From Desulfuromonadales bacterium (lineage in GTDB: Bacteria; Desulfobacterota; Desulfuromonadia; Desulfuromonadales; SZUA-540): a stretch of DNA of 64,000 bases. Position 1 is the first letter of the stretch. Each line of letters starts with the position of its first letter. Position numbers and translations under genes: made by a program. The DNA lies in contig JAWSUS010000001.1 of the NCBI GenBank assembly GCA_033549025.1, positions 139,685-203,684 of the forward strand. The letters run 5' to 3'. Positions 38,875 through 62,141 of the stretch are shown one piece after another. The notes under the pieces were generated by a model. The model saw only the letters and a list, made by a program, of their open reading frames with translations. It was not told where the DNA came from and did no database searches.

Positions 38875-39970
38875 TTATTTTTTACTCAAAAGATAGGCTT
38901 CGATAAAGTCGTCTAGTTCCCCATCGAGAATCGCGTCGGTATTGCCCACCTCGTAGCCGGTTCGATGATCCTTGACAAGCCGATAGGGGTGCAGCACATA
39001 AGAGCGGATCTGGCTCCCCCAGCCGATTTCCTTCTTTTCGCCGGCAATGACCGAGGCCTCCTCTTCCTTCTTGCTCACCTCCATCTCATAGAGACGGGCC
39101 TTGAGCTGCTTGAGAGCCACGGCCCGGTTCTTATGCTGGGAGCGTTCGTTCTGGCAGGCCACGACAATACCGGAAGGGATGTGCGTAATGCGGATGGCCG
39201 AATCGGTCTTGTTGACGTGCTGGCCGCCCGCGCCGCTGGCCCGGTAGGTGTCGACCTTCAGATCTTTTTCGTTGATCTCGATCTCGATATCGTCGGAGAG
39301 CTCGGGAAAGACAAAGACCGAACAGAAGGAGGTATGACGACGGGCGTTCGCATCAAAGGGTGAGATGCGCACCAGGCGGTGGATCCCCATTTCGGCCCGC
39401 AGGTAGCCGTAGGCGTATTCCCCCTCGACATTGAAAGTGGCCCCTTTGACCCCGGCTTCATCGCCGGGTTGATAATCGGTGATCTCGGTGCGGAACCCCT
39501 TGCGTTCACAATAACGAAGGTACATGCGCAGCAGCATCTCGGCCCAATCCTGGGCTTCGGTGCCGCCAGCGCCGGCATTGATGCTGACGATGGCGCTGTT
39601 GGCGTCATGCTCGCCGGAAAGCATGCGGGCAAATTCCATCTTGGCGACTTTTTGCTGCAGATCAGGGAGAATCCCCTTGATCTCCTGCAGGGTCGCCTCG
39701 TCCTCCTCGGCTTCGCCAAGCTCGACCAGCACCTGCAGGTCCTCCAGTTCCTGGGCCGCTTCGTCCCAGGCGTCGACCCATTTCTGCAGGGAGGTACGCT
39801 CCTTGAGACGTTCCTGGGCCTGTTCCCCCCGGTTCCAGAAATCGGGATGGGCTATTTCCGCTTCCAGCTCGGCAATACGTTCTTTCTTGGTGTCAACGTC
39901 AAAGATACCTCCTCAGCTCTTCGAGCTTGAGCTTGATCTCTTTGAGTCCCTCTTTTTCATCACGAAACAT
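38875..39970 (-). CDS. prfB: Peptide chain release factor 2, with programmed +1 frameshift (join 39970-39902 and 39900-38875)
   Basis: ATG 39970 gives MFRDEKEGLKEIKLKLEELRRYL ending in CTT TGA C; the +1 frame continues DVDTKKERIAELE... to the SPF and GGQ motifs. Confidence 0.97.
39898..39913 (-). promoter_or_regulatory. prfB autoregulatory frameshift site
   Basis: Minus strand AGGAGG TAT CTT TGA C, the canonical SD-like element plus slippery stop. Confidence 0.95.
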
Positions 39971-48953: not shown

Positions 48954-50843
48954 TCAGCCTGACGGATCATCCTGCTCGTCCGTTTCGGCCAATTTCAGGA
49001 TGTCATCCACCCGGACCCGCTCCAGCACCTCTTCCTCCAGCAGGGCCGCGGCCAGTCGCTCCAAGGCGGGTCTATGCCCTTCCATGATTTCTTCGGCGAC
49101 CCTTTCTCCCTCTTTGATGATCTTTTCGATCTCCTGATCGATCAGCCAGGCCATCTGTTCGCTGAAGGTCTTCTCGACCGCCAGCTTGCGCCCCAGAAAA
49201 GGGTGCTCTTCGCCCCGGCTGAAAGTAACCGGGCCGATCTTGTCGCTCATCCCCCACTGGCATACCATTTTTTCGGCCAGGTCCGTCACCTGTTTGAGAT
49301 CGCTCTGCGCCCCCGTCGACACCACACTGAAAACGGCCTTTTCCGCCGCCCGCCCGCCAAGGCTCACGGCGATGCGCGTCATCAGGTAATCCCGGGTATA
49401 GTGATAGCGGTCATCCTCGGGTAACTGCTGGGTGACACCCAGCGCATGCCCCCGCGGGATGATGGTGACCTTATGAATGGGATCGGCGCCGGGCAGCAGT
49501 TTGGCCACCAGCGTATGCCCGGCTTCATGATAGGCCGTAATTTTCTTCTCTTCTTCCGAGAGAAAAAGTTTGCGCTCGGCCCCCATGAGAATTTTGTCCT
49601 TGGCCGTTTCCAGGTGGGCCATACCGACCTGATCACGATCCTGCCGGGCCGCAATGAGAGCCGCTTCGTTGACCAGACTTTCCAGATCCGCTCCGCACAT
49701 CCCCGGTGTGCCGCGCGCGATGACCTGCAGGTCGACATCATCGGCCAGCGGCACCTTGCGGGTATGCACCTTCAGGATGGCTTCACGGGCCCGCCAGTCG
49801 GGGCGTTCCACCACAACTTGGCGATCAAAGCGGCCTGGCCGCAGCAGGGCGGGGTCAAGCACATCGGGCCGGTTGGTCGCCGACATGATGATGACTTCCT
49901 CGTGGGGCTCAAAACCGTCAAGCTCGGCCAGCAGCTGATTCAGGGTCTGTTCCCGTTCGTCATTGCCGCCCCCCAGGCCCGTACCCCGCGATCGGCCGAC
50001 GGCGTCGAGTTCATCGATAAAGATGATGCTGGGCGCGTTTTTCTTGGCGTTGGAGAACAGATCGCGCACCCGGCTGGCACCGACACCGACAAACATTTCG
50101 ATAAACTGTGAAGCCGAAATGGAGAAGAAGGGAACCCCGGCCTCACCGGCCACTGCCCTGGCCATAAGTGTCTTGCCCGTCCCCGGCGGGCCGACCAGCA
50201 GTATGCCGCGAGGCACCTTGCCGCCGAGTCGGGCGAATTTCTTGGGGGAGCGCAGAAACTCCACCACCTCCATAAGCTCCTGCTTGGCTTCGTCCAAACC
50301 GGCAACATCATCGAAGGTAACGCGCGAATGCTCCTGCGAATAGAGTTTGGCGCCCGACTTGGAGAAATTTCCCATCAAGCCACCGCCGACGCCGCCGCCC
50401 CGGTTGCGCAGCCCCTTGATTATAAACCACCAGAAGCCGATGATGAGCAGCCAGGGGATCAGGTACACAAGAACAGAAGACCAGGCCGAGGGTGTCTTGT
50501 CGGGGAGGATGTGGATCTCGACCTGACCCTTCTGCAGAAGCTCAAGCAGTTCGGGATCATCGAAAGGAGGCAGGGTGGCAGAAAATCGCGGGTAGAGGAC
50601 AGCTGAATCTGGGGCCGTTTTTTCCCCATTCAAAGCAATGGGCTCTCTGAAAACGCCCTCGATTGTCTTGTCCTGAAAGGTTATTTCCTGGATATTGCTC
50701 CGACGGGCTTCCTCCTTGAGGAGACTATAGCTGACGGCCGCAACCCGTTCCGGTTCAACCGGCGCCCGATAGATCAGATAGGCGTTGAAGACAAAGGCCA
50801 CCAGGGCCAGGATAAGAATCTGACGCCAGACAAGCTTGGGCAT
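48954..50843 (-). CDS. ftsH: ATP-dependent zinc metalloprotease FtsH
   Basis: Two TM helices, [27 protein letters not shown] and HEAGH motifs. Confidence 0.96.
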
Positions 50844-50951: not shown

Positions 50952-51251
50952 TTATTCTTCTTCCGACTTGAACCAGTGTTCAAACCAAGTGCGATGGTCC
51001 TTCTCAGCCAGAATCTGCAAATCTTTGGGTCCCAGCCAGACACCGCCGCACTTTACGCATTTATCGAGCGGGACACCGCGAAATTCCATGGGAACAATTT
51101 CATGACCGCATTTGGGACAGCGATTTCGGCACAGTTCCCGAATGAGTTGTTCGCGATGCTCCTCACGCATCTTTTCAATCAATTCTTTTTCGTGTTTGTA
51201 GAAATAACTGTTCTCCAGGGCCTTTTTTCGCTCTTCCCACAGATCTGTCAT
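50952..51251 (-). CDS. Zn-ribbon (zf-TFIIB-like) protein with charged N-terminal helix
   Basis: MTDLWEERKKALENSYFYKHEKELIEKMREE...CPKCG...LDKCVKCGGVWL. Confidence 0.8.
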   Translation of the reverse strand: MTDLWEERKKALENSYFYKHEKELIEKMREEHREQLIRELCRNRCPKCGHEIVPMEFRGVPLDKCVKCGGVWLGPKDLQILAEKDHRTWFEHWFKSEEE

Positions 51252-51285: not shown

Positions 51286-51313
51286 AGTATAACCGAGGGG
51301 AGGTGCTTGGCAA
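51286..51313 (-). promoter_or_regulatory. Putative sigma70 promoter for the Zn-ribbon gene and ftsH
   Basis: Minus strand TTGCCA-N16-TATACT. Confidence 0.5.
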
Positions 51314-51332: not shown

Positions 51333-52274
51333 TCACTCCAGCAGACGATAATGGCCCTGCCCAAAGGAAGCACTCTTGCCGATGTTCATGAGGGCGCCAA
51401 GGCGCAGCACCCAGGCAAGGTGATTGAGAGGTGCGCCGGTCAAGGTGGTAGTGCCGACCACGCCGCCAAGATCAATAGCATGGTCCTGCCCTTCGAGCGT
51501 ACGCCAATCCTCCCAACACAGGGAAGAGTCAGACTCTTGCACCAGAGACGCCTGAGCGAGCAGCTCCCGAGGATCGTCCTCAAGTTCAACGCCGCAGTGG
51601 GAAAAAAGCATTGAGGTCACCCGACGCAGCACAAAAGGGAAAACACGGGCGAACTCCGGCCGAAACAGGGGCCGTCCACCGGAGAGCAGCCGGGCCGGCG
51701 TCAACAACTGCAGAGTGAGAGTTTGCGGCACCGCTCCAAGGCGGTCCAGCTCCCAGGCCGCCGAAGAAATAGCGGGGCACAGGGGTTCGATCGGCTGTCC
51801 CTCCCGCCAGATTTTTTTAAAATGGCCGGCCGGATCGGCCGTCTCCAAGGCAATCACGTCAAAGCTCCCCTCCCCCCGACTGATCCCCTGTCGCCCCAAC
51901 TCCTGCAGCGCCCGCAGAAAATCCCCCATGGCCGCAATCCCCTTGCCCCAGAAAACCACCGGCAGACGCAGGAGGTCACCCGCCTCATAAAGCGAGGCCT
52001 GAGTTTCTTCAGGCAACAGGGCAAAGGGGGGAGTGGGTTTCTGGTGCCGGCGACGCCCCTGAACATCGGGGCTGACGTTGGGCGAAAAGAGTTGACGAAA
52101 ACGTTCGGCCGAGCCCTCGACAGCCGCAAGGACGGAAGTCGCCTGCAGAAGTTCCCGGCGCAGTCGCAGCAGATGGGCGATAGCCAGATCGCAGGGATCC
52201 TGAAATTCCAGGACAAATATCGCCCTAGTGAATTCAGCCCTCTCCAATCCAGTGGGAATTTCCGGCAGAAACAT
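51333..52274 (-). CDS. cas6: Stand-alone Cas6-family RAMP endoribonuclease-like protein
   Basis: C-terminal glycine-rich loop IGKSASFGQG (hGxxxxxGxG), plus PTPPF, LLTPARL, LRRVTSM, WEDW and LGGVVG motifs of the Cas6 (DUF2276-type) family; AGGAG RBS. Confidence 0.82.
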   Translation of the reverse strand: MFLPEIPTGLERAEFTRAIFVLEFQDPCDLAIAHLLRLRRELLQATSVLAAVEGSAERFRQLFSPNVSPDVQGRRRHQKPTPPFALLPEETQASLYEAGDLLRLPVVFWGKGIAAMGDFLRALQELGRQGISRGEGSFDVIALETADPAGHFKKIWREGQPIEPLCPAISSAAWELDRLGAVPQTLTLQLLTPARLLSGGRPLFRPEFARVFPFVLRRVTSMLFSHCGVELEDDPRELLAQASLVQESDSSLCWEDWRTLEGQDHAIDLGGVVGTTTLTGAPLNHLAWVLRLGALMNIGKSASFGQGHYRLLE

Positions 52275-52312
52275 GGTTCATCTCCTGTTAGTCGTCGAAC
52301 CCAGAATGGCCA

Positions 52313-52341
52313 ATCATACCCGCAACCGCCGGGCATTCCAA
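52313..52341 (-). promoter_or_regulatory. Putative sigma70 promoter for the cas6-like gene
   Basis: Minus strand TTGGAA-N17-TATGAT, about 40 bp upstream of the ATG. Confidence 0.5.
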
Positions 52342-52513: not shown

Positions 52514-53632
52514 ATGCTGCAATTTGAGCTTCTGGCCCAGGACAAGCAGACGGCGGCCCGACGCGGCCGCGTCACCACCCCGCACGGCGTCATCGAGACG
52601 CCCATCTTCATGCCCGTGGGGACCCACGCCGCCCTCAAGGCCATGACGCCGGCCCAGGTCGAAGAGACCGGCGCCCAGATCATCCTGTCCAACACCTACC
52701 ACCTGCACCTCAAACCCGGCGAAGGCCTAGTGGAAAAAGCGGGCGGGCTGCACACCTTCATGAACTGGCACAAGCCGATCCTCACCGACAGCGGCGGCTT
52801 TCAGGTCTTTTCCCTGCCCAAGAAAAAAATCACCGAGGATGGCGTCTTCTTTCGCCATGAATATTCCGGTGATGAGATATTCCTTGGACCGAAAGAGGCC
52901 ATGGCCATCGAGAATGCTCTCGGCGCCGACATTATTATGGCCTTCGATGAGTGCATCCCCTACCCGGCCACCCACGACTATGCCGCCCGATCCATCAAGA
53001 AGACCCTGCGCTGGGCCGAACAGTGCCTGCAGAGCCACGGGCGCGCCGACCAGGCTCTCTTCGGCATCGTACAGGGGAGCGTCTATGAGGATCTGCGCCG
53101 TGAGTGCGCCAAAGCCCTGACGGCCATGGACTTTCCAGGCTACGCCATTGGCGGCGTCAGTGTCGGAGAGGGGCTGGAACTGCTGAAAAAGGTCGTGGAC
53201 TATACGGCTCCTTTCCTGCCGGAGAACAAGCCGCGCTACCTCATGGGGGTCGGTCTGCCCGAGGATATTTTGGAGAGCATCGAGCGCGGCATGGACATGT
53301 TCGACTGCGTCATCCCCACCCGCTACGCTCGCAGCGCCACCCTCTTTACCAGCCGCGGCAAGATACGCCTGACCAACCGCCGCTACCGCCGCGACTTCTA
53401 TCCGGTGGACCGCGCCTGCGACTGCTACTGCTGCCGCAACTTCACCCGGGCCTATCTGCACCACCTGTATAACGCCAACGAAATTCTGTCAGCGATCCTG
53501 GCGGCCATCCACAATGTCCGCTTCTATCTGACTATGGTCGAAGGTGCCCGAAAAGCGATTGAGAAGGGGGAATACCTCGATTACAAACGTGAATTCCTCG
53601 GACAGTACGGATTTAACGAAGACGGGGAATAA
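52514..53632 (+). CDS. tgt: tRNA-guanine transglycosylase
   Basis: TPIFMPVGT, NTYHL, TDSGGFQV, GIVQG, YLMGVG, DMFDCV and the CDCYCC Zn site. Confidence 0.96.
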   Translation: MLQFELLAQDKQTAARRGRVTTPHGVIETPIFMPVGTHAALKAMTPAQVEETGAQIILSNTYHLHLKPGEGLVEKAGGLHTFMNWHKPILTDSGGFQVFSLPKKKITEDGVFFRHEYSGDEIFLGPKEAMAIENALGADIIMAFDECIPYPATHDYAARSIKKTLRWAEQCLQSHGRADQALFGIVQGSVYEDLRRECAKALTAMDFPGYAIGGVSVGEGLELLKKVVDYTAPFLPENKPRYLMGVGLPEDILESIERGMDMFDCVIPTRYARSATLFTSRGKIRLTNRRYRRDFYPVDRACDCYCCRNFTRAYLHHLYNANEILSAILAAIHNVRFYLTMVEGARKAIEKGEYLDYKREFLGQYGFNEDGE

Positions 53633-53654: not shown

Positions 53655-54440
53655 ATGAGCAGCCTGGATGCGAACAAGGCCATAAGGCTCCGGCAAGCGT
53701 TGACAGCTGCGGCAGACGAGCTTTTTGCGTTGCTGCAGGAGGCCGATGGAGAGGTACTGCGCGCCACCCTCAAAAACCCTCGCCTGACAGAAGAACACCT
53801 GCTGGTTCTCCTCAAGAGACGAGATCTGCCGGAAGAGCTTCTCCAAGTAGTTTATCAGCACAAACACAGCGCCGAAAGTCATCGACTCAAATTGGCTCTG
53901 GCCCAGAACCCGGCCACACCGGGGCACCTGATGCAGACCCTGCTGCCACAGCTCTTCACCTTCGAACTGCTCAACCTCTGCGTGCTGCCGGGCACAACCA
54001 GCGACCAGAAACTGGCGGCGGAACGGGTCATCGTGCAACGGCTGCCCACTATGCCGCTGGGCCATAAAATGACCCTGGCCCGCCGGGGGACGGCTCTCAT
54101 TGTCGGTGAACTGCTCAAAGAGGGGGATACCCGACTGCTGGAGGCCTGCCTGGCCAATGCGCGCTTAAAGGAATCTGCGATTTTTCAGTTTCTGAACGGC
54201 GCCAAGGCCACGGCCGAGACCATCTCCTGCGTGGCCCGTCATCCGCGCTGGAAAAACCGCCCCAATCTGCAGATGGCTATCCTGAAGAACCGCAAAACCC
54301 CACCCATCTGGTACACGGTGCTGCTACCCCGCCTCCGGCCGACGGAGATCCGGCAGCTGCGGACCAACCCCAGCCTGAGCCCCGCCCAGCGCACCCTCAT
54401 TCAGGAAGAGATGAACAGGCGCCAAAAACGCTCTTCCTGA
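53655..54440 (+). CDS. Hypothetical Leu-rich helical-repeat protein
   Basis: Good RBS directly after tgt; recurring L..NP motifs (LKNPRL, LAQNPAT, LANARL, LKNRKT). Confidence 0.7.
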   Translation: MSSLDANKAIRLRQALTAAADELFALLQEADGEVLRATLKNPRLTEEHLLVLLKRRDLPEELLQVVYQHKHSAESHRLKLALAQNPATPGHLMQTLLPQLFTFELLNLCVLPGTTSDQKLAAERVIVQRLPTMPLGHKMTLARRGTALIVGELLKEGDTRLLEACLANARLKESAIFQFLNGAKATAETISCVARHPRWKNRPNLQMAILKNRKTPPIWYTVLLPRLRPTEIRQLRTNPSLSPAQRTLIQEEMNRRQKRSS

Positions 54441-61148: not shown

Positions 61149-62141
61149 CTACCTTTTCGCCATCGTCTTCAGCCCCTGCCGCAGCCCCGCCACAAAGGTC
61201 TTGCGCAGGCCTTCCGGCGCCAGTACTTCCACGTGCGGCAGGTAGGAATAGAGCCAGGAGAGGATCTCCTGCTCACCTGCCGCCTCAAAGGAGAGGATCA
61301 CCGAGCCGTCCTCCTGCTCGTCCAGCTGCTGAGCCGGGTGCCAGATGCGCTCACGGATCAGGTGGGCCACGGCCGGGCCGAAACGGACCTTAAGAGCCAG
61401 CGGTTGGTCGTTGATCAGACCGAAGGCGTTGCCGGTGAGATCCTCCAGGCGGAAGTTTTCGGGAATCTCGAAACGCGTATCGCTACAGTGAAGCTCCTGA
61501 ATCCGGTCGACCAGAAAGAGGCGCAAATCCTGGCGGTTATGAGCGTAACCGCCCACATAGAGGGAATCCTTGTAGAAGAGCAGTGTGTAAGGGTCGAAGA
61601 GATATTCCTGACCGGAGCGGTGGGGCGGCGCGTAGATCAGGGTGCAGCGGTACTGATAGAGCAGGGCCTCGCGCAGGCGACGCAGGATTTCCTTTTTGCC
61701 GCTGTAGTCCCGTATTCCCTGAAAACGGGGGGCTGCCGCTTCGGCCAGGCGTTCGAGATGGGCGACGCTACGCGGCGGCAGACTGGAGCGGATGCGGCCA
61801 AAAATGGCGTCGAGATCATCGGAAAAAGGCGTTCCCTGCAGAAAGGAGAGTTGCCCCCGACAGAAATAGAGGGTCATCAACTCCGGTAGGGAAAACGTGA
61901 TGGGTGGGATATTCTTGAAGCCGGTGATGAATCGATAAAGGGTGCGTCCATCGGCCTCGCGCTCCCGCACCAGCGGATAACCGGCATCGGCTATTGCCTG
62001 CAGGTCGCGGTAGATGGTGCGCCGATTAACCTGGCACTCCTCGACCAGTTCCTCCACCGTGGCGCCGTACCGGGCTTCGAGCAGGCGGATGACATCATGC
62101 AGTCGGGCGGCCTGGCTGTATTTCTTGGCCGGCTTGGTCAC
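61149..62141 (-). CDS. HTH-WYL(-WCX) transcriptional regulator
   Basis: N-terminal wHTH (TVEELVEECQVNRRTIYRDL), WYL domain (FDPYTLL...YVGGY...RLFLVDRI) and C-terminal WCX-like region (WLYSYLPHVEVLAPEGLR). Confidence 0.92.
   Translation of the reverse strand: MTKPAKKYSQAARLHDVIRLLEARYGATVEELVEECQVNRRTIYRDLQAIADAGYPLVREREADGRTLYRFITGFKNIPPITFSLPELMTLYFCRGQLSFLQGTPFSDDLDAIFGRIRSSLPPRSVAHLERLAEAAAPRFQGIRDYSGKKEILRRLREALLYQYRCTLIYAPPHRSGQEYLFDPYTLLFYKDSLYVGGYAHNRQDLRLFLVDRIQELHCSDTRFEIPENFRLEDLTGNAFGLINDQPLALKVRFGPAVAHLIRERIWHPAQQLDEQEDGSVILSFEAAGEQEILSWLYSYLPHVEVLAPEGLRKTFVAGLRQGLKTMAKR

Follow-up and report, generated by a model that had tools for sequence, protein, structure and literature searches.

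Our data indicate that the cas6-like gene of the Desulfuromonadales bacterium analyzed here encodes a genuine Cas6-type protein, in both family and fold, and that it is a conserved chromosomal gene that keeps one position, in the loci examined, across the class Desulfuromonadia. The gene occurs independently of CRISPR and is carried by genomes with and without Cas1 and RAMPs. The explanation that we favor, and consider fairly likely, is that a Cas6 of the family serving type III CRISPR-Cas systems was exapted for a CRISPR-independent role and was then vertically inherited as a conserved chromosomal gene.

A Cas6-type protein encoded among housekeeping genes

The window, i.e., the whole 64,000-nucleotide stretch of DNA analyzed here, was previously predicted from its letters to contain an intact 313-aa Cas6-family protein with a glycine-rich loop. 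This observation is confirmed because a Cas6 profile, Pfam, an AF2 model, and Foldseek agree. The PADLOC Cas6 profile PDLC01477 matches residues 13-311 of the protein (1e-56, 190.6 bits), and Pfam PF10040 matches it at 3.8e-11 (44 bits vs a cut-off of 25); NCBIfam models gave no match to the protein. PF27225 (AF_1859_N in the protein atlas) is also found on relatives in a large protein collection, and public records name the relatives "CRISPR system precrRNA processing endoribonuclease" or Cas6. Across 62 homologs 17 residues are invariant, and the glycine-rich loop is conserved (Table 1).

The AF2 model, for which the 62 homologs served as input, is confident (pLDDT 92.9, pTM 0.91), with beta-alpha-beta-beta-alpha-beta elements present in each half, i.e., two ferredoxin/RRM-like halves. 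When the model was compared with the PDB by Foldseek, the top matches were the Cas6 structures 6dd5, 4c9d, 4c98, and 4c8y (E 1e-12 to 3e-10, probability 1.00). These best structural matches are the Thermus thermophilus Cas6 proteins TTHB231 and TTHA0078 (4c9d, 4c98, 4c8y) and the Cas6 domain of a Marinomonas Cas6-RT-Cas1 protein (6dd5). They share 14-19% identity with the cas6-like protein and, in contrast to its setting away from any cas locus, process CRISPR repeats in cas loci. A sequence search of the PDB with the single protein found no match, and the family profile matched only the C-terminal G-rich region of Cas6-RT-Cas1 proteins (6dd5, 7kft). Since these sequence and profile matches are nil or C-terminal only, the catalytic His of TTHA0078 (PDB title "H37A mutant") is not mappable onto the cas6-like protein.

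The ribosome-binding site had been called good, and a Shine-Dalgarno motif is indeed well placed before the start codon (Table 1). The candidate promoter fared less evenly. Its two hexamers recur in four genus-level loci (L002-L005), but the number of sigma-70-like sites in the cas6-like region is near chance (2 vs 1.2 +/- 1.1 in shuffles) and is weak evidence taken alone. The terminator scan of the region returned 4 sites vs 5.0 expected.

Table 1. Features of the cas6-like locus (positions in the window)
Feature	Position	Strand	Basis
Second FtsH paralogue, FtsH2	48954..50843	-	Pfam M41/AAA/FtsH_ext
Zn-ribbon protein gene (PF13453, 5.7e-15), 99 aa from second ATG	50952..51251	-	Pfam; downstream of cas6-like gene
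Promoter-like site TTGCCA-16-TATACT, between cas6-like stop and Zn-ribbon gene	51286..51313	-	10/12 match, predicted
cas6-like CDS, 313 aa, ATG start (solo Cas6 derivative)	51333..52274	-	ORF, PADLOC, Pfam, AF2, Foldseek
Glycine-rich loop codons, G299-K300...G305-x-G307	51354..51380	-	Invariant or at least 90% in 62 homologs
Codons for residues ~30-62: LLRLRRELL and no Cys, in place of the YKGSTLRGxxG and four-Cys cluster of CRISPR-linked relatives	52089..52187	-	Alignment
Shine-Dalgarno AGGAG, 7 nt 5' of cas6-like ATG	52282..52286	-	Sequence
Promoter-like site TTGGAA-17-TATGAT, upstream of cas6-like gene	52313..52341	-	Consensus scan and conservation, predicted
tgt (queuine tRNA-ribosyltransferase), divergent neighbor of cas6-like gene	52514..53632	+	Pfam TGT 6e-159

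The position of the gene between ftsH/Zn-ribbon and tgt was borne out by Pfam on the neighbors. FtsH2 is 55% identical to the FtsH on contig C3 (118512-120113), which lies in a tilS-ftsH-folP-cdaA-ybbR-glmM cluster. The start of the Zn-ribbon gene was set at 51251 because the 5' extension holds stops in three relatives. By eye, most of the 20 intergenic sequences from across the order that separate the cas6-like and Zn-ribbon genes (window and loci L003-L021) contain an element of the form CTTGCC(A)-N16/17-TATA(C/A)T. This recurrence suggests that the Zn-ribbon gene probably has its own promoter, separate from the cas6-like gene, and that co-transcription of the two does not follow from adjacency.

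Elsewhere in the window are genes for LPS and lipid A enzymes, BamA, RF2, PhoH, enolase, RlpA, AccA, and DnaE, among others. Two further claims, that the 64 kb hold no other cas gene, array, or mobile element and that the composition of the gene looks native, were upheld. Of the 58 large ORFs, 49 were scanned with Pfam and none matched a cas gene, transposase, or integrase; TRF over the window found no array-like repeat. GC content around the cas6-like gene is 0.53-0.62 vs 0.51-0.64 for 45-58 kb.

Searches for CRISPR-Cas in the source genome

The genome assembly comprises 3.39 Mb in 78 contigs with a marker completeness of 100%, and our searches covered all but 9464 bases, 8 kb of which are on contig C18 with housekeeping flanks. 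Arrays often fail to assemble in drafts, and this draft has 78 contigs. K-mer scans of the genome contigs for spaced repeats found no array. Their sole match was a 42-bp tandem repeat at the start of the window (positions 1-247; 5.9 copies, 93% matches), directly after a 95-base N run of the contig, and it is not a CRISPR array because spacers are absent.

Profile searches of the genome found no Cas1, Cas2, RAMP (PF03787), Cas3_HD, or Cas5d, and the cas6-like gene is the sole match to PF10040. We also queried the genome by tblastn with 18 Cas proteins that phylum relatives encode in type III loci, two of them canonical Cas6 and the other 16 type III or adaptation proteins. The 16 type III or adaptation proteins found no match in the genome, and the two canonical Cas6 queries matched the cas6-like gene alone. 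Searching the genome with a type III repeat taken from a phylum relative returned short chance matches only (best E 0.24), and Rfam over 46-56 kb returned nothing above gathering, with sub-threshold chance matches only. Neither search turned up an RNA target for the protein. Thus, the CRISPR array and effector cas genes that mark the genome of a crRNA-processing Cas6 were not found in the 78-contig draft less 9464 bases, which goes against the originally suggested trans-acting processor of a remote array.

Conservation of the gene and its position across Desulfuromonadia

We found that the cas6-like gene is widespread among relatives. With the protein as query, homologs were detected in 38 of 41 relatives drawn from the same genus and 27 families of the order, and most of the 41 have one full-length open copy at 33-91% identity. 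Across the class, 185 of 201 sampled genomes (approximately 92%) match; the order of the window accounts for 92 of its 101 genomes, and the other families for 93 of 100. The gene was not found in any of the eight genomes of one family of the order (f5). Cas1 was detected in 19 of the same 41 relatives and RAMPs in one. Moreover, 20 of the 38 carriers are without Cas1 and without RAMPs, and 17 of these 20 are at least 90% complete (several were searched minus some stretches).

Synteny within the order was assessed in the best-scoring 20 loci, own genome included, with a flank of 1.5 kb each. The Zn-ribbon gene is directly downstream of the cas6-like gene in all 20, FtsH follows in 17, and tgt is divergent upstream, within the 1.5-kb flank, in 11. 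The suggested check of synteny with tgt across Desulfuromonadales came out in favor of a conserved locus in the loci examined. In family f5, tgt faces FtsH2 directly, and the cas6-like and Zn-ribbon genes are both missing. Since FtsH2 is kept there without the cas6-like gene, the FtsH2 protease does not need it.

For the sister order, 14 loci were picked non-randomly from long contigs. FtsH is adjacent in 9 of the 14 and tgt lies within approximately 5 kb in 11; each of the 14 has at least one of these. Here the cas6-like gene typically follows an operon resembling succinate dehydrogenase/fumarate reductase, with genes for cytochrome b, flavoprotein, and Fe-S subunits. The Zn-ribbon gene occurs in some sister-order genomes only, far from the cas6-like gene. 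We also observed that in several sister-order loci (among L022-L035) the cas6-like gene is on the same strand as, and directly after, a three-gene frdCAB/sdhCAB-like operon, with a gap of approximately 90 bases in L029.

Motifs kept and lost relative to CRISPR-linked Cas6

We aligned 48 sequences, comprising 19 solo proteins of this order, 14 solo proteins of the sister order, and 15 CRISPR-linked proteins. Common to all three groups are R39, F63, G110, T192-P193-x-R195, F208, R217-R218, W254-x-D256-W257, G270-G271, G274, and the glycine-rich loop G299-K300...G305-x-G307. We considered a motif lost if it was conserved in at least 80% of the 15 CRISPR-linked proteins and in less than 20% of both solo clades. 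By this definition, both solo clades have lost residues K, G, S, and T of YKGSTLRG along with the Gly residues that follow, the Glu after F63, the His of APHPF, the PY/Y block, a Tyr near residue 156, and the RYSxRQ block after WxDW. All 15 CRISPR-linked proteins have the complete four-Cys cluster. It is absent from the order of the window and largely retained in the sister order (three of the four Cys positions at 0.64-0.86). The loss of the LRG..G motif and of the Cys cluster, which the original prediction had put forward, is thus evident in the alignment with CRISPR-linked relatives, and motifs conserved in CRISPR-linked members of the subfamily are missing from the cas6-like protein.

Judged from the alignment, these changes may represent the loss of canonical active-site or repeat-recognition elements from a protein that keeps its RNA-holding core. 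Cleavage without His does occur among Cas6 enzymes. One might speculate that the separate Zn-ribbon protein stands in for the lost internal Cys cluster; some sister-order genomes with the cluster intact carry the Zn-ribbon gene too, at other loci.

Origin, selection, and expression

Outside the class, a profile of the order-level homologs matches 102 of 291 genomes of the phylum, in a patchy distribution and often with several copies each. Nine of the best 10 loci outside the class are beside type III cas genes (Cas10, Csm, Cmr) or CARF genes, and the tenth ends at a contig edge. The eight cas6 ORFs scanned from these best 10 loci score 334-381 bits on PDLC01477 vs 190.6 for the protein of the window. 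Of eight second copies in class genomes, seven are canonical cas6 genes with Csx1, Cas10, or Csm3 as neighbors; therefore, class genomes with type III systems carry their own cas6 plus the solo gene.

A maximum-likelihood tree (quick search, SH-aLRT support only) recovered clades of this order's solo genes (support 100), the sister order's solo genes (98), and the CRISPR-linked genes (98). The branch joining the three clades is just 0.008, and therefore the sisterhood of the two solo clades rests on shared synteny and not on the tree. The shared position suggests that recruitment took place in the class ancestor, while the tree leaves the number of recruitments open.

We found that the cas6-like gene evolves faster than its neighbors yet is under purifying selection. 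Within the genus, its dN/dS (Nei-Gojobori) is 0.13-0.18, compared to 0.02-0.05 for tgt, 0.06-0.11 for the N-terminal part of FtsH, and 0.015-0.03 for the Zn-ribbon gene. For the Zn-ribbon gene, three rows involving L005 were left out, as an in-frame stop in the non-coding 5' extension shifted the codon mapping. The relaxed selection that would mark a decaying gene was thus not seen. Furthermore, the same-order matches listed are full-length and have no internal stop, except in genomes G183 (TGA), G036, G103, and G159. With regard to expression, metatranscriptome contigs from two runs of one study hold pieces of the cas6-like gene at 96-98% identity, which is a weak hint only because DNA can occur in such libraries. 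Two RNA runs (X15 and X20) have zero cover of the gene and carry no weight as evidence.

A proposed CRISPR-independent role and its alternatives

We propose that, after descent from the Cas6 family serving type III systems, recruitment would have preserved the parts of the protein that hold RNA (the two RRM-like halves, the glycine-rich loop, and core Arg/Lys residues) and given up the YKGSTLRG block, the conserved His, RYSxRQ, and, in this order, the four-Cys cluster. The most likely mechanism would be binding of a cellular structured RNA via the retained Cas6 core. As far as can be told from sequence, the canonical cleavage chemistry is probably absent or the specificity altered. With less weight, we suggest that the role may perhaps be tied to the downstream Zn-ribbon gene and the FtsH2 protease gene. 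A narrower version, which we offer tentatively as one possibility, is that a Cas6 nuclease was domesticated at the root of Desulfuromonadia as a core, vertically inherited RNA-binding factor for a cellular hairpin in place of CRISPR repeats, possibly together with the Zn-ribbon protein and with an effect on the FtsH2 operon. If true, it would be a Cas protein that does housekeeping work without any CRISPR system.

The original prediction had named domestication as one of two options, and this option gains from the class-wide occurrence, conserved position, independence from Cas1 and RAMPs, purifying selection, and distinctness from canonical cas6 copies. The other option, in which the protein still processes crRNA in trans from an array elsewhere in the genome, is in our judgment highly improbable. 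Membership in the Cas6 family and the intact glycine-rich loop would fit such an enzyme, as would a 78-contig draft with 9464 bases outside the searches, and, according to a 2025 classification (PMC12669027), most type III loci apparently rely on a Cas6 from elsewhere. However, the draft genome yielded no array, Cas1, Cas2, RAMP, Cas3_HD, or Cas5d and, by tblastn, no type III proteins; more than half of the carriers (20/38) are without Cas1 and RAMPs; class genomes with type III systems have a separate canonical cas6 alongside; and several motifs that its CRISPR-linked relatives conserve are gone. Decay after the loss of a CRISPR-cas locus, with the gene as its remnant, is scarcely credible. 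Its faster evolution than the neighbors and its lost motifs are what decay might produce, but a dN/dS of 0.13-0.18, 17 invariant residues in 62 homologs, same-order matches listed as full-length without an internal stop in all but four genomes, a position kept across two orders, and a confident AF2 model all speak against it.

The cas6-like gene might instead form a unit with the Zn-ribbon protein, and perhaps FtsH2, in a stress or quality-control module, with the Cas6 fold acting as adaptor or sensor and no need for RNA binding. We regard this as unlikely, although the adjacent Zn-ribbon gene in 20 of 20 order-level loci, the joint absence of the cas6-like and Zn-ribbon genes in family f5 (where tgt faces FtsH2), and the adjacency across both orders of FtsH2, the second paralogue and not the tilS-linked one, all favor it. 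On the other hand, the Zn-ribbon gene has its own predicted promoter and in the sister order is patchy and distant from the cas6-like gene, FtsH2 persists without the cas6-like gene, and the retained residues are typical of RNA contact in Cas6. It is very unlikely that the gene is part of an unrecognized defense or RNA-guided system with partners unmatched by current cas profiles. Cas6 relatives are otherwise linked to defense and the profile set searched in the genome was limited, which leaves some room for such a system, yet the surroundings are housekeeping genes (enolase, tgt, accA, dnaE, and lipid A genes) and the gene is near-universal in the class at one position, as opposed to patchy and often multi-copy elsewhere in the phylum (102/291 genomes with a match).

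Comparison with known Cas proteins

The cas6-like protein resembles type III-associated Cas6 (PF10040/PF27225, PDLC01477) in its two-domain architecture, length, glycine-rich loop, TPxRL, RR, and WxDW, and shares 21-25% identity with CRISPR-linked members from the phylum. It differs from them in having no adjoining cas gene or array, a lower PDLC01477 score (190.6 vs 334-381 bits), no YKGSTLRG, His, RYSxRQ, or four Cys, and one class-wide position.

Exapted Cas parts have been described, including solo Cas4, the Cas1-solo of casposons, and a Streptomyces module derived from type I-E with a STAND NTPase (PMC8730458, in its accessible portion). As there presented, these are, like the cas6-like protein, Cas proteins outside adaptive immunity; they are tied to mobile elements or defense, whereas the cas6-like gene is a single gene in a housekeeping setting. 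More generally, the accessible parts of this literature describe CRISPR-Cas exaptation mostly for mobile elements and other defense functions. The cas6-like gene, unlike those exaptations, follows the species phylogeny of a whole class. In the available portions of the literature on orphan or exapted Cas6, including PMC8616872, PMC8730458, and PMC12669027, we found no description of a class-wide solo Cas6.

If our reading holds, the gene would clearly illustrate how a Cas RNA-binding protein can be absorbed into ordinary cell physiology. The sister order includes genetically tractable Geobacter species, and since orthologs are present there, the role of the gene is open to direct testing. There is also a consequence for annotation, as the name pre-crRNA endoribonuclease can wrongly imply a CRISPR system in CRISPR-less genomes.

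Other features of the window and of related loci

Several minor observations concern other genes. Downstream of tgt, a 261-aa ORF (53655-54440, +) has no Pfam or NCBIfam match and is kept beside tgt across the order, family f5 included. A gene for an HTH_11-WYL-WCX regulator is located at 61149-62141 (-), approximately 9 kb from the cas6-like gene; such regulators are frequently associated with defense loci. The release factor ORF at 38875-39732 (-), with PCRF and RF-1 domains, begins at position 60 of the PCRF profile, which fits the usual programmed frameshift of prfB. Lastly, in a relative from the phylum, a TnpB/Cas12f-like ORF (L038, 9633-10949, +; PADLOC Cas12f 1e-59) is found beside a type III-C locus and a 4-repeat array.
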